Shown here: one piece after another, positions 12,392 through 23,764 of the stretch
Position numbering within the stretch: position 1 is the first letter of the stretch
Layout of the letters: every line of letters starts with the position of its first letter
Source of the DNA: an uncultured delta proteobacterium
Lineage (GTDB): Bacteria > Desulfobacterota > Desulfobacteria > Desulfobacterales > UBA2156
Assembly: GCA_963698465.1 (NCBI GenBank)
Contig: CAVOQY010000013.1
Span: 486,687 to 550,686, forward strand
Length of the DNA stretch: 64,000 nt
Reading direction: 5' to 3'
Program-made: the position numbers and the translations under genes
The notes under the pieces: generated by a model
Database searches by the model: none
Told to the model about the DNA's origin: nothing
Seen by the model: only the letters and a program-made list of their open reading frames with translations

Positions 12392-14684
12392 TTGAAAAAA
12401 AGCCTTGTCGTCGTCGAATCGCCCACGAAAGTCAGAACCCTGAAAAAATACCTCGGCAGCGCCTATGCGGTGGCCGCCACGGTCGGCCATATCAAGGATC
12501 TCCCCAAAAAGGAGATGGGCATCGATATCGAGAGCGGTTTCAAGCCCGTGTATCAGGTCATCCCAGGGAAAGAACGCGTGATTCGATCCCTCAAACAGGT
12601 GGCCGGCGACATCACCGATGTCTTTCTGGCACCCGACCCGGATCGCGAAGGGGAGGCCATCGCGTGGCATACGGCGGAGGTTCTAGGAAAAAAAGGAAGG
12701 CGCTTCCACAGGGTGTTGTTCCACGAGCTCACCGAAAACGCCATCCTGGGCGCGATCCGCACTCCCGAAACCTTGAACCCCCACAAGTTCGAAGCTCAGC
12801 AGGCCCGGAGAGTCCTCGACCGCCTCGTGGGGTATAACCTCTCGCCCCTGCTGTGGCGGAAGGTGAAACAGGGACTCAGCGCAGGCCGTGTGCAGTCCGT
12901 AGCCGTCCGGATCATCTGTGAAAGGGAACGGGCCATCCAGGCCTTCGTCCCCGAGGAGTATTGGTCCATCACCGCACACCTGGAGGGGGATGCCCCGTCG
13001 CCCTTCACGGCGAAGCTGGTGAAAAAAGCGGGTAAAAAGATCCCCATTCCGGATGAAGCGTCCTGCAAAAGGGTCCTCGAAGATCTGGCCGGCCGGCCGT
13101 TTACGGTCGAAGATGTCGTAAAGAAAACGGTCAGTCAGTCCCCGCTGCCGCCCTTCATCACCAGCAAGCTGCAGCAGGACGCCATCCGCAGGCTGCGCTT
13201 TTCCGCCAAAAAGACCATGACCGTAGCGCAGCAGCTCTACGAAGGGATCGAACTGGGCCCGGGAGAACCGTTGGGCCTCATCACCTACATGCGCACGGAT
13301 TCGGTCCGCATCAACAAGGAAGCGGCCGAAGAAGCCATCGCCCACATCCGGGAACGCTTCGGCGGCGATTTCGCCATGGAACAACCCCGTTTTTTCAAAA
13401 ACCGGAAAAAGGCCCAGGACGCCCACGAGGCCATCCGGCCCACCTCCGTGGTCAACACCCCGGACAAAATGGCTCCTTTTTTGGACAAGAACCAGCTCGC
13501 CCTTTATGAAATGATCTGGAAACGCTTCGTGGCCTCTCAGATGAAGCCCGCGCTTATCGACAAAGTGGCGGCATCCATCAGCGCAGGACCCTATCGATTC
13601 TCCGCCGGCGGCTCCACTGTCGCGTTTCCGGGTTTCATGGCCCTGTACCAATCCGTGGAAGACGAATTGAAAGCAAAGGAGGCAAAGGACAAGCTTCCGC
13701 CTCTTTCCAAGGGGATGCGGCTTGCGCTGGAGAAACTCGAGCAGAAACAGCATTTCACTCAGCCCCCGCCCCGTTTCTCCGAAGCGTCCCTCGTCAAAGA
13801 ACTGGAAGAGAACGGCATCGGGAGGCCCAGCACTTACGCCGCCATCCTCTCCACCATCCGAGAAAAAGGATATGTGGACCTGGTCAAGGGATACTTCCGA
13901 CCCAGCGAACTCGGTTTCATCGTCAACGACCTCGTCGTCGGAAGCTTTCCGGAACTGGTCAACGTGGAATTCACGGCGAAGATGGAGGACCATCTGGACC
14001 AAATCGAAGCGGCGGAAATGGATTACCTGAAAATGATCACGGATTTTTACGGCGATTTTCAGACGGCCTTCCAGAAAGCCGCCAGCGGGATGTTGAGCCT
14101 GAAAGGCGTCGGTCTGCCCACCGGCCTGGAATGCCCCTCCTGTCGAGAGGGGATTTTGCATATCAAAGTGGGCAAAAATGGGCACTTTTTGGCATGCAAT
14201 CGATATCCCGAATGCACCTTTTCGGCCAACTACACCCGTGACGAAAAAGGGGGCCTCCACATCAACGGCCAGGATCCTGGAGAACCCTCGGATGAAACCT
14301 GTGAAAAATGCGGCCGTCCCATGCGCATCAAGAAGGGGAAATACGGCCCTTTCCTGGCTTGCAGCGGGTATCCGGATTGCAAGAACGCAAGGTCCCTATG
14401 CGCCGGTCCGCCCTGAAACGGAAACCGGAGTCAAGTGTCCCGAAACGGGTTGCGAAGGCGACTTGGTCCAGAAGACGTCAAAGCGCGGAAAAAACTTTTA
14501 CGGGTGCAATCGCTACCCGAAATGTGCTTTTGCCATCTGGGAAAAGCCCGTGCCCAAACCCTGCCCGGACTGCGGCGCGAAGTTTTTGGTGGAAAAAAGC
14601 ACCAAACGCGAAGGATCCTTCCTCAGCTGCCGGACCGAGGGCTGCACCCACCGGGAAAAATTTTCCCTTGACACGGAGAGATAG
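12392..14684 (+). CDS. topA: DNA topoisomerase I, apparent +1 frameshift at ~14411-14413 before the last Zn-ribbon repeats
   Basis: VVVESPTK, PDPDREGEAIAWH, SAGRVQS, ITYMRTDS, GIGRPSTY and C4 zinc ribbons. ETGVKCP...FYGCNRYPKC continues in the +1 frame to 14684. Confidence 0.95.
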
Positions 14685-14696
14685 CGCTGCTACGAG
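14668..14696 (+). promoter_or_regulatory. promoter of the ilv-leu leader: TTGACA-N17-TACGAG with extended -10 TG
   Basis: TTGACA at 14668-14673, TG at 14688-14689, TACGAG at 14691-14696; overlaps the topA 3' end. Confidence 0.6.
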
Positions 14697-14731
14697 TGCT
14701 TCAGCATTACTTTTTCGTTAAGGAATTCTTT

Positions 14732-14830
14732 GTGGATTTGCGAGTTACCATTATCAACCTTATCGCTATTCTCCTCCTTCCGGTAATCCTCGTCGGCAGC
14801 CGGAAGGAAAAGGGGTTGGTAATGGCCTGA
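14732..14830 (+). CDS. ilv/leu operon attenuator leader peptide [32 protein letters not shown] (32 aa)
   Basis: GTG start with AAGGA SD about 7 nt upstream. 16 of 32 residues are Ile/Leu/Val. Lies directly upstream of a terminator and ilvD. Confidence 0.85.
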
Positions 14831-14851
14831 CATTAAATCAGAAACAGTTTG

Positions 14852-14891
14852 AATCCGTTATCAGCCCCAAGCTGGTAACGGATTTTTTTTT
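14852..14891 (+). terminator. attenuator intrinsic terminator
   Basis: 14-bp stem 14852-14865/14871-14884 (one G-U pair), loop CCCAA, T run 14883-14891. Confidence 0.9.
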
Positions 14892-14916
14892 GAAAAAACC
14901 CAAGGAGAAACCGACC

Positions 14917-16581
14917 ATGAAAAGCGACCGGGTCAAAAAGGGGATCGAACGTGCCCCCCACCGCAGCCTCTTCAAAGCCATGGGATATACACCCGAGGAG
15001 ATGAAACGCCCCCTGGTGGGTATTGCCAACTCCTTCAACACGCTCATCCCCGGCCATATCCATCTTGATAAGGTGGTGGAGGCCGTGAAGGCCGGTATCT
15101 ACATGGCGGGCGGCACCCCCGTGGAGTTCGGCACCATCGGCGTCTGCGACGGCATTGCCATGAACCATGTGGGCATGCACTATTCCCTGGCCAGCCGGGA
15201 GCTCATCGCCGACAGCATCGAGGTGATGGCCGTTGCCCATGCCTTGGATGCGCTGGTGCTGGTTCCCAACTGCGACAAGATCGTCCCCGGGATGCTCATG
15301 GCCGCCGCCCGCCTCGACCTCCCGGCCATCGTCGTGAGCGGAGGTCCCATGCTGGCCGGAATCCATCCGGAAACCGGCGAGAAGATCAGCCTGGTCACCG
15401 TCTTCGAATCGGTGGGTGCCGTAAGGGCCGGAACGATCCCCGAGACCCAGCTCGAGGACTTGGAAGACGCCGCATGCCCCACCTGCGGTTCGTGTGCCGG
15501 CATGTTCACGGCCAACTCCATGAATTGCCTGACGGAGGCCGTCGGCATGGCTCTTCCCGGAAACGGAACCATTCCAGCGGTCATGGCCTCCCGGATCCGC
15601 CTGGCCAAAGCCTCCGGCATGCGCATCGTCCATCTGATCCAGGAAGGAATCCGTCCCAAAGACATCTTGACGGAAAACGCCTTTAAAAACGCCCTCGCCG
15701 TAGATATGGCTCTGGGGTGCTCCACCAACACGGTGCTCCATCTCATGGCCATCGCCCACGAGGCCGGCGTGACCCTCGGCCTCAATGAGATCAACACCAT
15801 CAGCGGAAAAACTCCGCACCTGTGCTCCATGAGCCCCGCCGGAAAACACCACCTGGAGGACCTGGACCGGGCCGGTGGGATCCCTGCCGTCATGAAAACG
15901 CTCATGGCGCTCAATGGAATTGATCCGGGCGCACTCACGGTCACGGGAAAGCCTGTGGGCGAAAACCTGGCTTCGGCCCGGGTTCGGGACCCGGAGGTCA
16001 TCCGGCCCCACACCCGCCCCTATCACCCGAAAGGCGGCCTTGCCGTCCTGTTTGGAAACCTCGCCCCCGGGGGCTGCGTGGTCAAGCAGTCCGCCGTCTG
16101 CGAAACCATGCTCGTGCATGAGGGCCCCGCCCGGGTTTTCGACTCCGAAGAAGAAGCCACCCGGGCCATCATGAGCGGGAAAATCAAAAAAAAGGACGTC
16201 GTGGTCATCCGATACGAAGGCCCCGTGGGCGGCCCCGGAATGCGGGAGATGCTGACGCCCACGTCAGCCATCGCCGGGATGAAGCTGGACGCCCACGTGG
16301 CGCTTCTCACGGATGGCCGTTTCTCGGGCGCCACTCGCGGGGCGGCCGTCGGGCACATTTCACCCGAAGCCATGCAAGGGGGCCCCATCGCCGGGGTGGA
16401 AGAAGGCGATCTTGTCCGCATCGACATTCCGGGAAAAAGGATCGACCTGAAGATATCGGAAGAAACGCTGCAACAGCGGCTTTCCCGCTGGAAACCTCCG
16501 AAGCCCAAAATCGAAAACGGGTATCTTTCCCGTTATGCAAAAACGGTTTCATCGGCCGGAGAAGGCGCCATCGTTCGGTGA
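14917..16581 (+). CDS. ilvD: dihydroxy-acid dehydratase
   Basis: [49 protein letters not shown]; AGGAG SD before ATG 14917. Confidence 0.97.
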
Positions 16582-16607
16582 CGGCCAATTTCAGAAAGGA
16601 AACCATC

Positions 16608-18299
16608 ATGAAGCTCACCGGAGCGCAAATTTTGATGCAGGTCCTCAAAGAGGAAAAAGTCGACACGATCTTCGGCTTTCCCGGGGGGACGGTCATCGAT
16701 ATCTACGATGAACTGATGAACACGGATATCCGGCACATCCTCGTACGTCACGAACAGGGGGCCGTACATGCCGCCGACGGTTATGCGAGGGCCTCTGGAA
16801 AAGTCGGGGTCTGCCTGGTCACCTCCGGGCCCGGAGCCACCAACACGGTCACCGGCGTGGCGACGGCCTATATGGACTCCATTCCACTGGTGGTGCTGAC
16901 CGGGCAGGTTCCCACCCACCTGATCGGCAACGACGCCTTTCAGGAGGTGGATATCGTCGGCATCACCCGTCCCTGCACCAAACACAACTACCTGGTCTCC
17001 AGGGTCGAGGACTTGGCGCAGATCCTCAAAGAGGCTTTCCTGATCGCCCGTTCGGGAAGACCCGGGCCGGTCTTGGTGGACATCCCTAAAAACGTCTCCG
17101 TTGCAAAGACCGCCTACGAACCGATCCCAAAAATAAGGATCAAATCTTACAATCCCACCTACGAACCCAACCCGAAACAGCTTCAAAAAGTCGTCAAGCT
17201 GATCGAGGAAGCCAAACGGCCCATGATCTTCGCCGGAGGGGGCGTGATTCTTTCCAAGGCCTCGGGAGAACTGACGGCCTTCGCCCGAAAAACCCGCATC
17301 CCCGTGACCATGTCCCTGATGGGGCTGGGCGCCTTTCCCGGAAACGACCCGTTGAGCCTTGGGATGATCGGGATGCACGGGACCTACCGGGCCAACATGT
17401 GCACCTCGGCCTGCGACCTTTTGATCGGAATCGGGGTCCGCTTCGACGACCGGGTCACGGGCAAGACCGACTGCTTCGCCTCCCAGGCGCGCATCGTCCA
17501 TATTGACATCGACCCCACCAGCATTCGTAAAAATGTGACGGTGGCGGTTCCGGTGGTGGGGGACTGCAGGATCAGCCTGCAGCGCCTCAACCACCTCATC
17601 GACGAAAAACCGCTCAAAGGCCTTGGCGCCAAGCGCCGGGACTGGCTCGCGCAGATCGACGAGTGGCGAAAAGCCCACAAGCTCGCCTATCGGCAGGATC
17701 CCGAGGGGGCCATCAAGCCCCAGTTCGTCATCGACCACCTGTTCCGGCTCACCAACGGCAAGGCCATCATCACCACGGAGGTGGGGCAAAACCAGATGTG
17801 GACGGCCCAGTACTATCATTTCGAAAAACCGGGGCATTTTCTCTCCTCGGGCGGCCTCGGGACCATGGGTTTCGGCCTTCCTGCGGCCATCGGGGCCCAG
17901 GCTGCGTTCCCGGACACGCTGGTGGTGGATGTGGCCGGAGACGGCAGCATTCAGATGAACATCCAGGAAATGGCCACCGCGGTGGAGCACGAACTGCCGG
18001 TGAAGGTGGTCATCCTCAACAACGGCTGCCTGGGGATGGTGCGGCAGTGGCAGCAGCTTTTTTACGGGAAACGCTATGCCGCCACCTGCATGAACTGCGC
18101 GCCGGATTTTGTTCTCTTGGCGCAGGCCTACGGGGCGACAGGCCTGCGGGCCCAGCGGCCTTCCGAAGTGGAGCCGGTTTTGCGTCAGGGGCTTGAAACT
18201 CCCGGTCCGGTGATCATGGATTTCCGTGTCGAAAGGGAAGAGTGCGTTTATCCGATGGTGCCCGCCGGCGCCCCCATCACCGAAATGCTTCTGGCTTGA
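16608..18299 (+). CDS. ilvB: acetolactate synthase large subunit
   Basis: RHEQGA, TSGPGATN, TPP-binding GDGS...NN, GMVRQWQ. Confidence 0.96.
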   Translation: MKLTGAQILMQVLKEEKVDTIFGFPGGTVIDIYDELMNTDIRHILVRHEQGAVHAADGYARASGKVGVCLVTSGPGATNTVTGVATAYMDSIPLVVLTGQVPTHLIGNDAFQEVDIVGITRPCTKHNYLVSRVEDLAQILKEAFLIARSGRPGPVLVDIPKNVSVAKTAYEPIPKIRIKSYNPTYEPNPKQLQKVVKLIEEAKRPMIFAGGGVILSKASGELTAFARKTRIPVTMSLMGLGAFPGNDPLSLGMIGMHGTYRANMCTSACDLLIGIGVRFDDRVTGKTDCFASQARIVHIDIDPTSIRKNVTVAVPVVGDCRISLQRLNHLIDEKPLKGLGAKRRDWLAQIDEWRKAHKLAYRQDPEGAIKPQFVIDHLFRLTNGKAIITTEVGQNQMWTAQYYHFEKPGHFLSSGGLGTMGFGLPAAIGAQAAFPDTLVVDVAGDGSIQMNIQEMATAVEHELPVKVVILNNGCLGMVRQWQQLFYGKRYAATCMNCAPDFVLLAQAYGATGLRAQRPSEVEPVLRQGLETPGPVIMDFRVEREECVYPMVPAGAPITEMLLA

Positions 18300-18320
18300 G
18301 GCATGCGAGGATAACCCGTC

Positions 18321-18815
18321 ATGATGGAAAACGAAGACAAACACATTTTCACCATGCTTGTGGACAACAAGCCCGGCGTCCTTTCCCGGGTCGTCGGGCT
18401 TTTCAGCGGCAAAGGCTTCAACATCGACAGCTTGTGCGTTGCCGAAACCATCGACCCTGCGGTCTCCCGGATCACCATCGTCACCCGGGCCGACGCCCCT
18501 GTTTTGGAACAGATCGAAAAACAGCTGCGCAAACTCATCAATGTGATCAAGCTTCGGGACATGACCGGTTCCCGGGCGGTGAAGCGGGAAATGGCTTTGA
18601 TCTGCATCAAGGCCAAAAAGGAAAACCGGGACGAAATTTTGCGCTTGGTGGACATCTTCCGGTGCAAAATCGTGGACGTGGGTCCCAAGTACTACATCAT
18701 CGAGGCCACCGGAGACCGGGAAAAGATGGCGGCGCTCATCAGCCTGCTCAAACCGATGGGGATCAAAAAAATCGCCCGGACCGGAACCATCGCCTTGTAC
18801 CGAGAACCGGACTGA
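18321..18815 (+). CDS. ilvN: acetolactate synthase small subunit
   Basis: ACT domain NKPGVLSRV, QLRKLINVIK, ARTG. Confidence 0.95.
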   Translation: MMENEDKHIFTMLVDNKPGVLSRVVGLFSGKGFNIDSLCVAETIDPAVSRITIVTRADAPVLEQIEKQLRKLINVIKLRDMTGSRAVKREMALICIKAKKENRDEILRLVDIFRCKIVDVGPKYYIIEATGDREKMAALISLLKPMGIKKIARTGTIALYREPD

Positions 18816-18880
18816 TTGAAACAGAAAGGCCGACCGGAAGGGAAGCGTCGGCGCATGCTCTTTTGTGAAAGGAGAAACCC

Positions 18881-19942
18881 ATGGCAAAAATCGATTTCGG
18901 CGGAGTGCTGGAAGAAGTCACCACCGCAGAAGAGTTTTCGATGGAAAAGGCCCGGACGGTCCTGAAGGACGAAACCGTCGCCGTTCTCGGTTACGGCGTT
19001 CAAGGCCCGGGACAGGCCCTCAACCTGCGCGACAACGGGGTCCGGGTGGTGGTGGGGCAGCGGGAAGGAACCGCCTCCTGGGACAAGGCGGTCTCCGACG
19101 GTTTCGTTCCCGGAAAGACCCTTTTTCCTCTTGAAGACGCCGCCCGAAAAGGAACGGTCGTCCAGTACCTGCTCTCCGACGCAGGACAGATGGCCCTGTG
19201 GCCCAAGGTCAAGCCCTGCCTCACTCCGGGCAATGCCCTTTACTTCTCCCACGGCTTTTCCATCACCTACCGGGATCAGACCGGTGTGGTGCCTCCCCCG
19301 GATGTGGACGTCATCCTGGTGGCGCCCAAGGGCTCCGGCCGCACCGTGCGCACCAATTTCCTGGACGGGAGCGGAATCAACTCCAGCTACGCCGTTTTCC
19401 AGGACTTTACGGGCAGGGCCGAAGAACGGACGCTCGCCCTGGGGATCGCCATCGGTTCAGGGTACCTCTTCCCCACGACCTTTGAAAGGGAAGTCTACAG
19501 CGACCTGACCGGCGAGCGAGGCGTGCTGATGGGCTGCCTGGCCGGCGTCATGGAGGCCCAATACACCGTGTTGAGAAAGAATGGACATAGCCCCAGCGAG
19601 GCGTTCAACGAAACCGTGGAAGAGCTCACCCAGAGCCTGATCCGCCTGGTCGCGGAAAACGGCATGGACTGGATGTTCGCCAACACCAGCACTACCGCCC
19701 AGCGGGGAGCGCTCGACTGGTCCCCGCGCTTTAGAGATGCCGTGCTGCCGCTTTTCGAAACCCTTTATAAAAGTGTGATCGCCGGGAAAGAAACCCGCCG
19801 GGTCCTGGAAGCCAACAGCCACCCCGACTACCGGAAACACCTGGACAAGGAACTGGAAGCAATCCGAAAATCAGAGATGTGGAAGGCCGGAACCGCCGTA
19901 AGGGCCCTGAGGCCCGAAAACCGAAGTGTCCGGGGAAAATAA
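18881..19942 (+). CDS. ilvC: ketol-acid reductoisomerase (Bacteroidota/fungal Ilv5-like type)
   Basis: GYGVQGPGQALNLRDNG, VAPKG, SDLTGERG, AFNETVEE, STTAQRGA. Confidence 0.95.
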   Translation: MAKIDFGGVLEEVTTAEEFSMEKARTVLKDETVAVLGYGVQGPGQALNLRDNGVRVVVGQREGTASWDKAVSDGFVPGKTLFPLEDAARKGTVVQYLLSDAGQMALWPKVKPCLTPGNALYFSHGFSITYRDQTGVVPPPDVDVILVAPKGSGRTVRTNFLDGSGINSSYAVFQDFTGRAEERTLALGIAIGSGYLFPTTFEREVYSDLTGERGVLMGCLAGVMEAQYTVLRKNGHSPSEAFNETVEELTQSLIRLVAENGMDWMFANTSTTAQRGALDWSPRFRDAVLPLFETLYKSVIAGKETRRVLEANSHPDYRKHLDKELEAIRKSEMWKAGTAVRALRPENRSVRGK

Positions 19943-19995
19943 AGCGCCTTGGACCGGACGCCTGTTTGAAGCCCCGGCATCAGGAGAAACCGACC

Positions 19996-21609
19996 ATGAA
20001 ATCGATCCTTTTGTACGACACCACCCTCAGAGACGGGACCCAGGGGGAGAACATCAATTTCAGCGCCAAGGACAAAGTGGCCGTCGCCAAACGCCTTGAC
20101 CGCTTCGGGATCCATTATATCGAAGGCGGGTGGCCCGGCTCCAACCCCAAAGACAAGCAGTTTTTCGAGATGGCCCGGGATATTGCCTTCCAGCAGGCCA
20201 AGCTTACGGCCTTCGGCGCCACACGCCGGGCGGGAGTTGCCGCAGAAGACGACGAGAACCTCCGGGCGATCCTGGAAAGCAGTACGCCTGCGGTGACGGT
20301 TTTCGGAAAGAGCTGGACGCTGCATGTGAAAGAAGTGATGGAAAACAGCCTTGAGGAAAACCTCGCGATGATCCGGGACACGGTCCAATATCTTTCGAAC
20401 GAGGGCCGAGAGGTGATCTATGACGCCGAACATTTCTTCGACGGATACAAGAAAGATGCACCCTATGCCCTGGAAACGCTTTCCGCCGCCATTCAAGGGG
20501 GGGCAAAAAGCCTGGTTTTGTGCGACACCAACGGCGGCACGCTCCCCCACGAAATCGAGACCGCCGTCCAGGAGGTACGAAACCGCATCTTTGGAAAAGA
20601 CGCCTCCGGAAAGACCAAGGAATCCCTCGTCGTGGGCATCCATGCCCACAACGACTGCGGTCTTGCCGTGGCCAATTCCCTGGCGGCGGTGCGGGCCGGC
20701 GCCGCCCTGGTGCAGGGAACCGTCAACGGTTACGGGGAACGGTGCGGGAACGCCGATCTCATTTCCCTTATCCCTGTGCTGACCCTCAAGCTCAATCGCC
20801 CCTGCATCCCGCCGGAAAACCTTTCGCAGATCAAAAGGCTTTCCCGCTTCGTGAGCGAAACCGCCAACATCGTTCCCCTGAACAGCCGGCCCTTCGTGGG
20901 GAAAAGCGCCTTTGCGCACAAAGGGGGCATCCACGTGAGCGCCATCATGAAGGTCCCCCGGGCTTACGAGCACATAGACCCCCAGCTCGTGGGCAACCAC
21001 CGGCGGGTCCTCGTTTCGGATCTTGCCGGGAAAAGCAACATCGAATACAAGGCACGGGAACTTGGCATCGCGTTGGGGGGAAACGGCCACGACAGCCGCG
21101 AGATCGTCTCCAGGATCAAGGACCTCGAGCAGGACGGCTATCAGTTTGACGCAGCCGAGGGCTCGTTCCGGATCCTGGTCCAAAAGCTCACCGATCAGTT
21201 CCGTCCCCTCTTCGAGCTCGAATCCTTCCGGGTGACCATCGAAAAAAACCGCGACGAACCGTGCAGCGCCCACGCCACCATCAAGATCTCCGTGGGTGGG
21301 AAACAGGAAATCACCGCTGCGGAAGGCGACGGGCCGGTCAGCGCCCTGGACAACGCCCTGAGAAAGGCGCTTCAGACCTTCTTTCCGGAAATCCACGACA
21401 TGCATCTGGTCGACTTCAAGGTCCGCGTCATCGACGGGCGGGAAGGGACCGCATCGAAAGTGCGCGTGCTCATCGACTCCCGGGATCAGGATCATATCTG
21501 GAGCACCATCGGCGTTTCCAAGGATATCATCGAGGCGAGCTGGAAAGCCCTGGAGGACAGCTTCCAGTACAAACTTTCCACGAATACATCCGATGACGAG
21601 GGATTCTAA
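19996..21609 (+). CDS. cimA: citramalate synthase
   Basis: DTTLRDGTQGE, YIEGGWPGSNPK, FGKSW, DAEHFFDGY, HKGGIH, LAGKSN; LeuA-type dimer domain. Confidence 0.9.
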   Translation: MKSILLYDTTLRDGTQGENINFSAKDKVAVAKRLDRFGIHYIEGGWPGSNPKDKQFFEMARDIAFQQAKLTAFGATRRAGVAAEDDENLRAILESSTPAVTVFGKSWTLHVKEVMENSLEENLAMIRDTVQYLSNEGREVIYDAEHFFDGYKKDAPYALETLSAAIQGGAKSLVLCDTNGGTLPHEIETAVQEVRNRIFGKDASGKTKESLVVGIHAHNDCGLAVANSLAAVRAGAALVQGTVNGYGERCGNADLISLIPVLTLKLNRPCIPPENLSQIKRLSRFVSETANIVPLNSRPFVGKSAFAHKGGIHVSAIMKVPRAYEHIDPQLVGNHRRVLVSDLAGKSNIEYKARELGIALGGNGHDSREIVSRIKDLEQDGYQFDAAEGSFRILVQKLTDQFRPLFELESFRVTIEKNRDEPCSAHATIKISVGGKQEITAAEGDGPVSALDNALRKALQTFFPEIHDMHLVDFKVRVIDGREGTASKVRVLIDSRDQDHIWSTIGVSKDIIEASWKALEDSFQYKLSTNTSDDEGF

Positions 21610-21630
21610 GATCCCCAAGGAGGTACAGGC

Positions 21631-23169
<1,539 letters not shown>

Positions 23170-23239
23170 AAAGCCGAACCGGCAACCCCGGCTTCCTGTG
23201 AAATTGTCGAAAGAACCCGGGGGTCTTTGAAAAAAGCCC

Positions 23240-23286
23240 TTGACTTCCCTTAAACATGAATATAAATTCATGATTATTATTTCATT
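23240..23286 (+). promoter_or_regulatory. usp operon promoter (TTGACT -35) with tandem operators CATGAA-N6-TTCATG (23255-23272) and CATGAT-N6-TTCATT (23269-23286)
   Basis: Direct reading. The same pair of motifs recurs at 29405-29450. Confidence 0.7.
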
Positions 23287-23329
23287 TTAAATTTTCCTGA
23301 GGCCAGGATATCCTCAAAGGAGGATCGTC

Positions 23330-23764
23330 ATGTTTAAGACCATTTTATACCCCACGGATTTCTCTGAGGTCGCCGCCAAGGCCCTGGATTACATCAAACA
23401 GCTCAAGGAAGCAGGTTCCCAGAAAGTCATCGTTTTGCATGTATTCGATGAAAGGGGGCTTCAGGCCGTCAAGGGCTATTTTCCCACCCAGTTTCCAGAG
23501 TTGATCCAAAATCGAATCGAAGACATAACAAAACAGCTCAAAAAGGTGGAAAAAGAGCTGGCCGATAGCGGCTTTTCCGTCGAGGCAAGGATCCAAAAAG
23601 GGATACCCTTCAGGGAGATATTGCAGGCCGAGGAAAAAGAGAGTATTTCCGTCATTGTCATCGGATCCCACGGCAGAAGCAACCTCGAGGAGGTGTTTCT
23701 CGGATCCGTATCCGACAAAGTCGCCAGGAAAAGCAAAAGCCCGGTCCTGATCATCAAGAGGTAA
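23330..23764 (+). CDS. universal stress protein (Usp)
   Basis: ILYPTDFSE, IVIGSHGRS, LGSVSDKV, PVLII. Confidence 0.95.
   Translation: MFKTILYPTDFSEVAAKALDYIKQLKEAGSQKVIVLHVFDERGLQAVKGYFPTQFPELIQNRIEDITKQLKKVEKELADSGFSVEARIQKGIPFREILQAEEKESISVIVIGSHGRSNLEEVFLGSVSDKVARKSKSPVLIIKR

Follow-up and report, generated by a model that had tools for sequence, protein, structure and literature searches.

In enterobacteria, the ilvGMEDA and ilvBN operons carry attenuators whose leader open reading frames (ORFs) are rich in isoleucine, leucine and valine codons and encode the peptides IlvL (32 residues) and IvbL, respectively. For Corynebacterium, the accessible portions of two papers describe an ilvBNC attenuator, the ilvB-II motif, in which an upstream ORF with branched-chain codons and a multi-hairpin leader control ilvB transcription and for which a three-hairpin model was proposed (PMC11857589, PMC10272879). 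Closer in phylogeny, the genome paper of Geobacter metallireducens lists, in its available text, a T-box at leuA and a conserved sequence upstream of leuCD and contains no ilv leader (PMC2700814), and a 2004 paper on regulons of delta-proteobacteria does not treat the ilv genes in its accessible part. We found no paper on a leader-peptide attenuator of ilv or cimA genes in Desulfobacterota, with the limit that delta-proteobacteria may be among the groups treated in a Russian-language comparative survey (Lopatovskaya et al. 2010, cited in PMC4833913). Here we analyzed a stretch of 64,000 nucleotides (the window) from an uncultured member of the Desulfobacterales (assembly GCA_963698465.1, contig CAVOQY010000013.1, positions 486,687 to 550,686), in which a candidate attenuator precedes the branched-chain amino acid genes ilvD-ilvBN-ilvC-cimA-leuA. 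Coordinates are those of the window, and the promoter, the leader, the RNA segments and the operon genes all lie on its plus strand.

We conclude that the element is very probably a ribosome-mediated (leader-peptide) transcription attenuator of the ilvD-ilvBN-ilvC-cimA-leuA operon. This is based on its sequence elements, on the energetics of three folding states and on evidence that the ORF and each of the three helices are conserved and show covariation. A leader ORF, a terminator, mutually exclusive helices and a geometry that suits a translating ribosome were all found. From these features we infer a response to amino acid supply and the relative weight of isoleucine, leucine and valine in it; the codon content suggests that a single leader would report on all three aminoacyl-tRNAs.

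The promoter (14668-14696) consists of a -35 element TTGACA (14668-14673), a 17-nt spacer and an extended -10 element TGcTACGAG (14688-14696), with TG at 14688-14689 and TACGAG at 14691-14696, and the transcript would start near 14703. A generic promoter scan misses it because the -10 hexamer lacks the final T; the arrangement TTGACA-N14-cTGnTA is nevertheless kept in 27 of 27 related loci with sufficient upstream sequence. A Shine-Dalgarno sequence, AAGGA (14720-14724), lies 7 nt upstream of the GTG start codon at 14732, and same-genus loci have AAGGAG or AAGGAA at the equivalent position. The leader ORF (14732-14830) has 32 codons and ends with TGA at 14828-14830. Half of its codons (16) specify isoleucine, leucine or valine, 12 of them within codons 7 to 21. 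Such a composition is rare: among the 1094 start-to-stop frames with 20-45 codons in the six reading frames of the whole window, only three reach at least 50% Ile/Leu/Val, and two of these are the leader ORF itself with nested starts. The leader layout agrees codon for codon with that of same-genus relatives. The codons ATT, CTT and GTA used in the window leader are minor codons in the genes of the window (11%, 17% and 4% of their amino acid, respectively), in a small sample and with the leader codons partly forced by pairing. A longer version of 44 codons, starting from GTG at 14696, was rejected, as this codon lies within the -10 region, upstream of the presumed transcript start, and has no Shine-Dalgarno sequence. 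The leader peptide gave no match to Pfam and NCBIfam models, leader-peptide models included, at E values up to 10. Its 44-residue in-frame extension had no homologue in the protein collection, so that such leaders are absent from that collection at the available sensitivity.

Four RNA segments can form the alternative helices. Segment 1, CCATTATCAACC (14748-14759, helix arm to 14760), lies in the ORF, encodes T-I-I-N-L and is the 5' arm of the 1:2 anti-antiterminator. Segment 2, GGGGTTGGTAATGG (14812-14825, with the 1:2 arm extending to 14826), is the partner of either segment 1 or segment 3. Segment 3, CCGTTATCAGCCCC (14855-14868), serves as 3' arm in the 2:3 antiterminator and as 5' arm in an intrinsic terminator (14851-14891), in which a 15-bp 3:4 hairpin (14851-14885) runs into T9 (14883-14891). 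The T9 run ends 25 nt before the ilvD start, which places the terminator after the leader ORF and ahead of the first structural gene. Segments 2 and 3 are separated by a 29-nt A-rich, unstructured spacer. Between segments 1 and 2, and within the leader ORF, lies an inner hairpin CCUUCCGG...CCGGAAGG (14775-14808) of -17.8 kcal/mol. The leader stop codon is 2 nt downstream of segment 2, and the Ile/Leu/Val codons in positions 7 to 21 end at least 17 nt upstream of it.

RNAfold gave -67.5 kcal/mol for 14700-14895 (z = -5.8), and none of 200 dinucleotide shuffles folded as well. The minimum free energy (MFE) fold contains a 13-bp 1:2 helix (14748-14760 with 14814-14826), the inner hairpin and the 15-bp terminator hairpin. 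In the competing 2:3 helix all 14 positions are paired (14812-14825 with 14855-14868), three of them as G-U. A preliminary description of the window, made from the letters alone, had put forward a promoter TTGACA-N17-TGnTACGAG, a leader of 32 residues at 14732-14830 with 16 Ile/Leu/Val codons mostly between Ile7 and Val21, pairing of segment 2 with segment 1 or, over 14 nt including G-U pairs, with segment 3, and a segment 3 that doubles as the 5' arm of a terminator followed by T9. All of these were recovered here, and the folding of 14700-14895 that it had proposed as a check returned the switch helices 1:2 and 3:4 in the MFE structure. The inner hairpin was absent from that description.

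We then asked what a translating ribosome would do to this RNA by masking its footprint and refolding the remainder, the stall states being folded with an RNA truncated after segment 3. Whenever an Ile/Leu/Val codon between positions 7 and 21 occupied the A site, the MFE structure held the 14-bp 2:3 helix 14812-14825/14855-14868. With the ribosome at the stop codon (mask to 14841), the terminator alone formed. The unmasked leader, with no ribosome, formed 1:2 and the terminator. In isolation, 2:3 and 3:4 have the same energy, -21.1 kcal/mol each, so neither is favoured at equilibrium and the outcome is set by the order of synthesis, a property that the classical model demands. Together, the 1:2 helix and the inner hairpin amount to -35.4 kcal/mol, and an untranslated leader is therefore expected to sequester segment 2 and to terminate.

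These states suggest the following course of events. Transcription would begin at the TTGACA/TGnTA promoter, near 14703, and a ribosome would then translate the 32-codon leader. When the tRNAs for isoleucine, leucine and valine are charged, the ribosome should reach the stop codon at 14828-14830 and occupy segment 2; segment 3 would then pair with segment 4 and the polymerase would terminate at T9, ahead of ilvD. When any of the three amino acids is short, the ribosome would be expected to stall in codons 3 to 21, where it would cover segment 1 together with the 5' arm of the inner hairpin, with segment 2 left free. Free segment 2 could capture segment 3 once this has emerged, so that no terminator would form and the operon would be transcribed. 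Without translation, segment 1 would pair with segment 2 and termination would be the default. The inner hairpin may serve to pause the polymerase until the ribosome arrives, or as a brace for the 1:2 helix.

It is conceivable that the leader acts mainly through translation or Rho and not through the intrinsic terminator, either by shielding the RNA from Rho or by controlling ilvD translation. The A-rich, unstructured spacer between segments 2 and 3 is in line with this idea. Set against it, the ilvD Shine-Dalgarno sequence AAGGAG (14902-14908) lies outside every helix and is not sequestered, which indicates control at the level of transcription, and the canonical 15-bp hairpin with T9 hardly varies across the order. 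Hence we regard an action via translation or Rho as the least likely of the alternatives considered here.

Additional evidence for attenuation by a ribosome comes from the distribution of the element. BLAST searches with the 261-nt region gave matches in 44 of 61 related genomes, mostly over the part from segment 2 to the T-run. Of 30 fetched loci, 28 had the match directly upstream of ilvD or ilvB and often, though not always, downstream of topA; all 28 carry an Ile/Leu/Val-rich ORF of 26-35 codons with a core resembling AIINLIxLIL. In addition, we scanned 185,579 species genomes with a pattern of the terminator only, CCGTTAYCNGCY followed after 3-14 nt by GRYAACGGNTTTTTT, which contains no gene information. 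This gave at least 120 loci; among the matches listed, nearly all were from Desulfobacterales or Desulfobacteraceae, including Desulfobacter vibrioformis DSM 8776, and a few were labelled Syntrophales. Also among the listed matches, 112 of 120 loci were directly upstream of ilvD (59), ilvB (52) or cimA (1), most of the remainder were cut by contig ends and two had no downstream ilv gene. Within the order, a covariance model built from 27 leaders detected the element in 187 of 201 genomes (about 93%) and in 114 of 119 genera, with ilvD or ilvB nearly always the next gene downstream. It also found copies in 113 of 121 genomes of a class sample and in 20 genomes that belong to other classes of the phylum.

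A single copy of the element is present in the window genome. Some other Desulfobacterales genomes have two to four; these stand upstream of ilvD or of ilvB paralogues, and in one case upstream of an XRE/cupin-like regulator gene. The second to fourth copies in single genomes (L171-L175; G025, G489, G458) include this last one and otherwise precede divergent ilvB paralogues with 44-54% identity to the window IlvB. Typical Desulfobacterales-type leaders before ilvB also occurred on two contigs labelled as Gammaproteobacteria and Hyphomicrobiales metagenome-assembled genomes (L050, L078), which are probably mis-binned. In many relatives, and in the window at 14847-14899, the terminator hairpin stands between a 5' A-tract and a 3' T-tract and so matches on both strands in the manner of a bidirectional terminator. 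Reverse-strand matches were considered as a second element and rejected, as they are due to this A-tract/hairpin/T-tract symmetry.

The leader ORF is conserved together with the helices. Of 114 non-redundant leaders, 113 gave an ORF with its end at segment 2 by automatic detection, and the remaining one (L027) has such an ORF when inspected by eye. In these 114 leaders the mean Ile/Leu/Val fraction is 0.50 in frame and 0.22 and 0.10 in the other two frames, and the average leader has 6.5 Ile, 4.8 Leu and 3.2 Val. The stop codon falls within segment 2 in 79 of the 113, no more than 6 nt after it in 32 and further away in two, so that a ribosome finishing the leader always ends on segment 2. Residues of the peptide outside the RNA-constrained IIN motif vary freely within the Ile/Leu/Val class. 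In an alignment of 27 sequences, pairing was 92.2% for 1:2, 94.7% for 2:3 and 95.8% for 3:4, and dropped to 19-57% when the partner was slid by 1-3 columns. In an alignment of 100 sequences, made to a model with only 1:2 and 3:4, the 1:2 helix was 86% paired; the 2:3 helix, which was not fitted, was 91.5% paired, compared with 23-48% when slid and 90.2% in the best of 300 shuffles. One U/C column of segment 3 covaries three ways, its change from U to C being matched by A to G both in segment 2 (AU 68, GC 14, GU 5) and in segment 4 (UA 57, UG 23, CG 20). Covariation was also seen for a base pair at the terminator foot (UA 52, AU 29, GC 13). Conserved leader ORFs and covarying stems in relatives, which the preliminary description had named as a check, are thus present across the order and beyond it.

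These conservation data bear on a second alternative, in which the helices are real and the switch is set by a factor other than the ribosome, such as uncharged tRNA in a T-box-like manner, a small ligand or an RNA-binding protein, the ORF being incidental. Geobacter, of the same phylum, does use a T-box before leuA according to the accessible text of the genome paper (PMC2700814), and the conserved inner hairpin has no proven role in the ribosome model. Yet a factor-only mechanism needs neither an ORF nor a frame-specific Ile/Leu/Val bias nor a stop on segment 2, and these are kept in 111 to 113 of the 114 copies. The sequence between the helices is poorly conserved and offers no core resembling a ligand pocket. 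Likewise, cmscan of 14300-15300 against Rfam at E values up to 10 yielded no T-box (RF00230), no amino-acid leader RNA and no other family, apart from a chance match to CRISPR-DR5 (E = 6.5) that arises because the terminator palindrome is symmetric in its A-tract and T-tract. Control by such a factor is therefore very unlikely in our view.

Several points weigh against reading the element as a ribosome-mediated attenuator. By the E. coli consensus the -10 hexamer is weak, and a hydrophobic leader peptide would also suit a small membrane protein. Because the terminator pattern used to collect loci L031-L150 prescribes large parts of segments 3 and 4, the conservation of 3:4 in these loci partly reflects selection; 1:2, 2:3 and the ORF were not selected. 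Sequence conservation is high and true double-compensatory changes are few (2-6 pairs per helix). Finally, the sequences are related to one another, and the shuffle control ignores this relatedness.

At the place of the inner hairpin, a hairpin of -8 kcal/mol or lower directly upstream of segment 2 and inside the ORF was present in 94% of the 114 leaders, with a mean of -16.7 kcal/mol and a mean z of -3.2 against shuffles; its stems differ in sequence, examples being CCUUCCGG/CCGGAAGG, CCUCGUAG/CUACGAGG, GGAGGUG/CACCUCC and AUCAUCGUCG/CGACGAUGAU. The segments share one word. Segment 1 is made of two isoleucine codons plus one base (AUU AUC A), segment 2 is the complement UGAUAAU and provides most relatives with an in-frame UGA or UAA, and segments 3 and 4 read GUUAUCA and UGAUAAC. 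The coding constraint on segment 1 may thus propagate through the chain of pairings, which would explain the conservation of the terminator.

Downstream of the attenuator, ilvD (dihydroxy-acid dehydratase, 14917-16581; TIGR00110, 780 bits) would be the first regulated gene. It is followed by ilvB (acetolactate synthase large subunit, 16578-18299; TIGR00118, 835 bits), ilvN (acetolactate synthase small subunit, 18321-18815; TIGR00119, 198 bits), ilvC (ketol-acid reductoisomerase, 18881-19942; TIGR00465, 309 bits), cimA (19996-21609, start ATG 19996; TIGR00977, 735 bits with a cut-off of 450) and leuA (2-isopropylmalate synthase, 21631-23169; TIGR00973, 730 bits), the last gene of the putative operon. 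CimA, citramalate synthase, catalyzes the entry step of the pyruvate route to isoleucine, and no ilvA is present in the window. The NCBIfam assignments agree with the gene order ilvD-ilvBN-ilvC-cimA-leuA and with the citramalate route as given in the preliminary description. The first junction is a 4-nt overlap and the following gaps are 21, 65, 53 and 21 nt, and the attenuator hairpin is the sole strong plus-strand terminator in 14600-23500. Given this tight packing and the lack of another strong plus-strand terminator, a single operon is the simplest reading. Behind leuA there is a 160-nt gap and then a new promoter-like region. The translation-initiation regions of ilvD (14904-14922) and cimA (19983-20001) are identical over 19 nt, GGAGAAACCGACCATGAAA, although these are different genes of the operon and lie 5 kb from each other.

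Upstream lies topA, whose stop codon TAG (14682-14684) falls within the promoter. No terminator is found between the topA end and the leader (14674-14731), and read-through from topA would enter the attenuator; the attenuator hairpin may double as the topA terminator. The topA frame (14178-14684) breaks near 14390-14400: TopA of a relative aligns to its residue 395 up to about 14398, and past the break the C-terminal zinc-ribbon repeats are read in the following frame as far as 14666. The break is probably due to an assembly error.

This neighbourhood suggests a third alternative, a hairpin and T-run that form a constitutive topA terminator next to an ORF for an independent hydrophobic membrane peptide, with no switching at all. 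The missing topA terminator ahead of the leader, the common gene order topA-leader-ilv and a leader peptide hydrophobic enough for a membrane helix would all fit. The element stays with ilvD, ilvB, cimA or leuA, though, even where topA is not upstream, and a conserved promoter separates topA from the leader. A plain terminator would not need segments 1 and 2 as conserved, covarying complements of segment 3, and an independent peptide is at odds with residues that vary freely within one class of amino acids. Termination of topA read-through transcripts would be an added role and not a rival one. We consider a constitutive topA terminator beside an unrelated peptide to be even less likely than a non-ribosomal factor.

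Copies in other classes of the phylum keep the plan of the attenuator. In 24 fetched copies the leader stop lies on or after segment 2, and the 2:3 duplexes are mostly between -12 and -20 kcal/mol. Sixteen of these copies precede cimA, two leuA, five ilvB and one ilvD. Thirteen scored leaders before cimA contain 96 Ile, 66 Leu and 28 Val in 426 residues, and four of the 13 are essentially Ile-only, for example MNGRKQSTIIGIIIIGIIRPENTGA. The switch copies directly before cimA with Ile-only or Ile-plus-Leu leaders are found within L151-L168 and at L180, with L158 and L160 preceding leuA. Copies before ilvB that are labelled Syntrophales read MHAASIANIIIIIIGIIIPFHRGAG; in these and similar loci (L064, L106, L118, L165, L047, L055, L110) an almost pure isoleucine leader precedes ilvB, and segment 2, GGCUGGAUGAUGG, carries the UGA stop.

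On this basis we lean towards the view that Desulfobacterota possess a phylum-wide, modular attenuator family, in which one AUUAUCA/UGAUAAU switch, used four times over, would be joined to leaders of differing composition: in Desulfobacterales, mixed Ile/Leu/Val leaders before ilvD or ilvB; in other classes, leaders with Ile only or with Ile plus Leu before cimA; and in Syntrophales-like genomes, Ile/Val-rich, in some cases Ile-only, leaders before ilvB. If this is true, the cimA copies would, as far as we could find, be the first proposed gene-level control of the citramalate route by isoleucine itself.

Desulfobacterales are, to our knowledge, little studied genetically, and for these sulfate reducers the element provides a concrete, testable model for the control of branched-chain amino acid synthesis. 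An unannotated gene of 26-35 codons and an RNA switch are added to about 93% of the genomes of the order, both suited to an Rfam or NCBIfam model. The citramalate route to isoleucine becomes tied to classical attenuation, through the shared operon in the window and, in other classes, through the Ile-rich leaders that directly precede cimA. By using one isoleucine-codon word four times, the element illustrates how coding and RNA-pairing constraints together can lock a terminator sequence across an order. The understanding of attenuation itself is unchanged by the finding.

Compared with the enterobacterial ilvGMEDA and ilvBN attenuators, the window element has the same Ile/Leu/Val-rich leader ORF and the same mutually exclusive protector 1:2, preemptor 2:3 and terminator 3:4 with its U-run. 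It likewise stands directly before a branched-chain operon, would exert multivalent control and has a leader of similar length (32 codons). The preliminary description had assigned it the enterobacterial architecture; this holds for layout and mechanism and does not extend to a sequence family, as there is no Rfam, Pfam or NCBIfam match. The window peptide and its RNA have no sequence relationship to the enterobacterial leader families of IlvL and IvbL. The leader stop is in or right after segment 2 and not, as in the enterobacterial type, between segments 1 and 2. Also unlike that type, all four segments derive from the single motif AUUAUCA, with its two isoleucine codons, and the complement UGAUAAU, an extra conserved hairpin lies inside the ORF, and the operon holds cimA, for the citramalate route to isoleucine, with no ilvA in the window. 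The Corynebacterium ilvBNC attenuator, as described in the accessible text, comes from another phylum, is of another sequence family and controls ilvBNC only. The Desulfobacterales element has the segment sequences GGUUGAUAAUGG/CCGUUAUCAGCC, whereas an Acidobacteriota ilvD leader reportedly has GGAUGAUGG/CCAUCAUCC. The Geobacter leucine T-box, again as far as the available text goes, shares with the window element the phylum, the pathway and a terminator/antiterminator switch. It senses uncharged tRNA directly and without a leader ORF, whereas the window element has no T-box match, and it precedes leuA, which in the window is an internal operon gene 21 nt downstream of cimA. The mechanism is thus classical, and what is new is a sequence family that is unnamed in Rfam, Pfam and NCBIfam and is carried by nearly the whole order.

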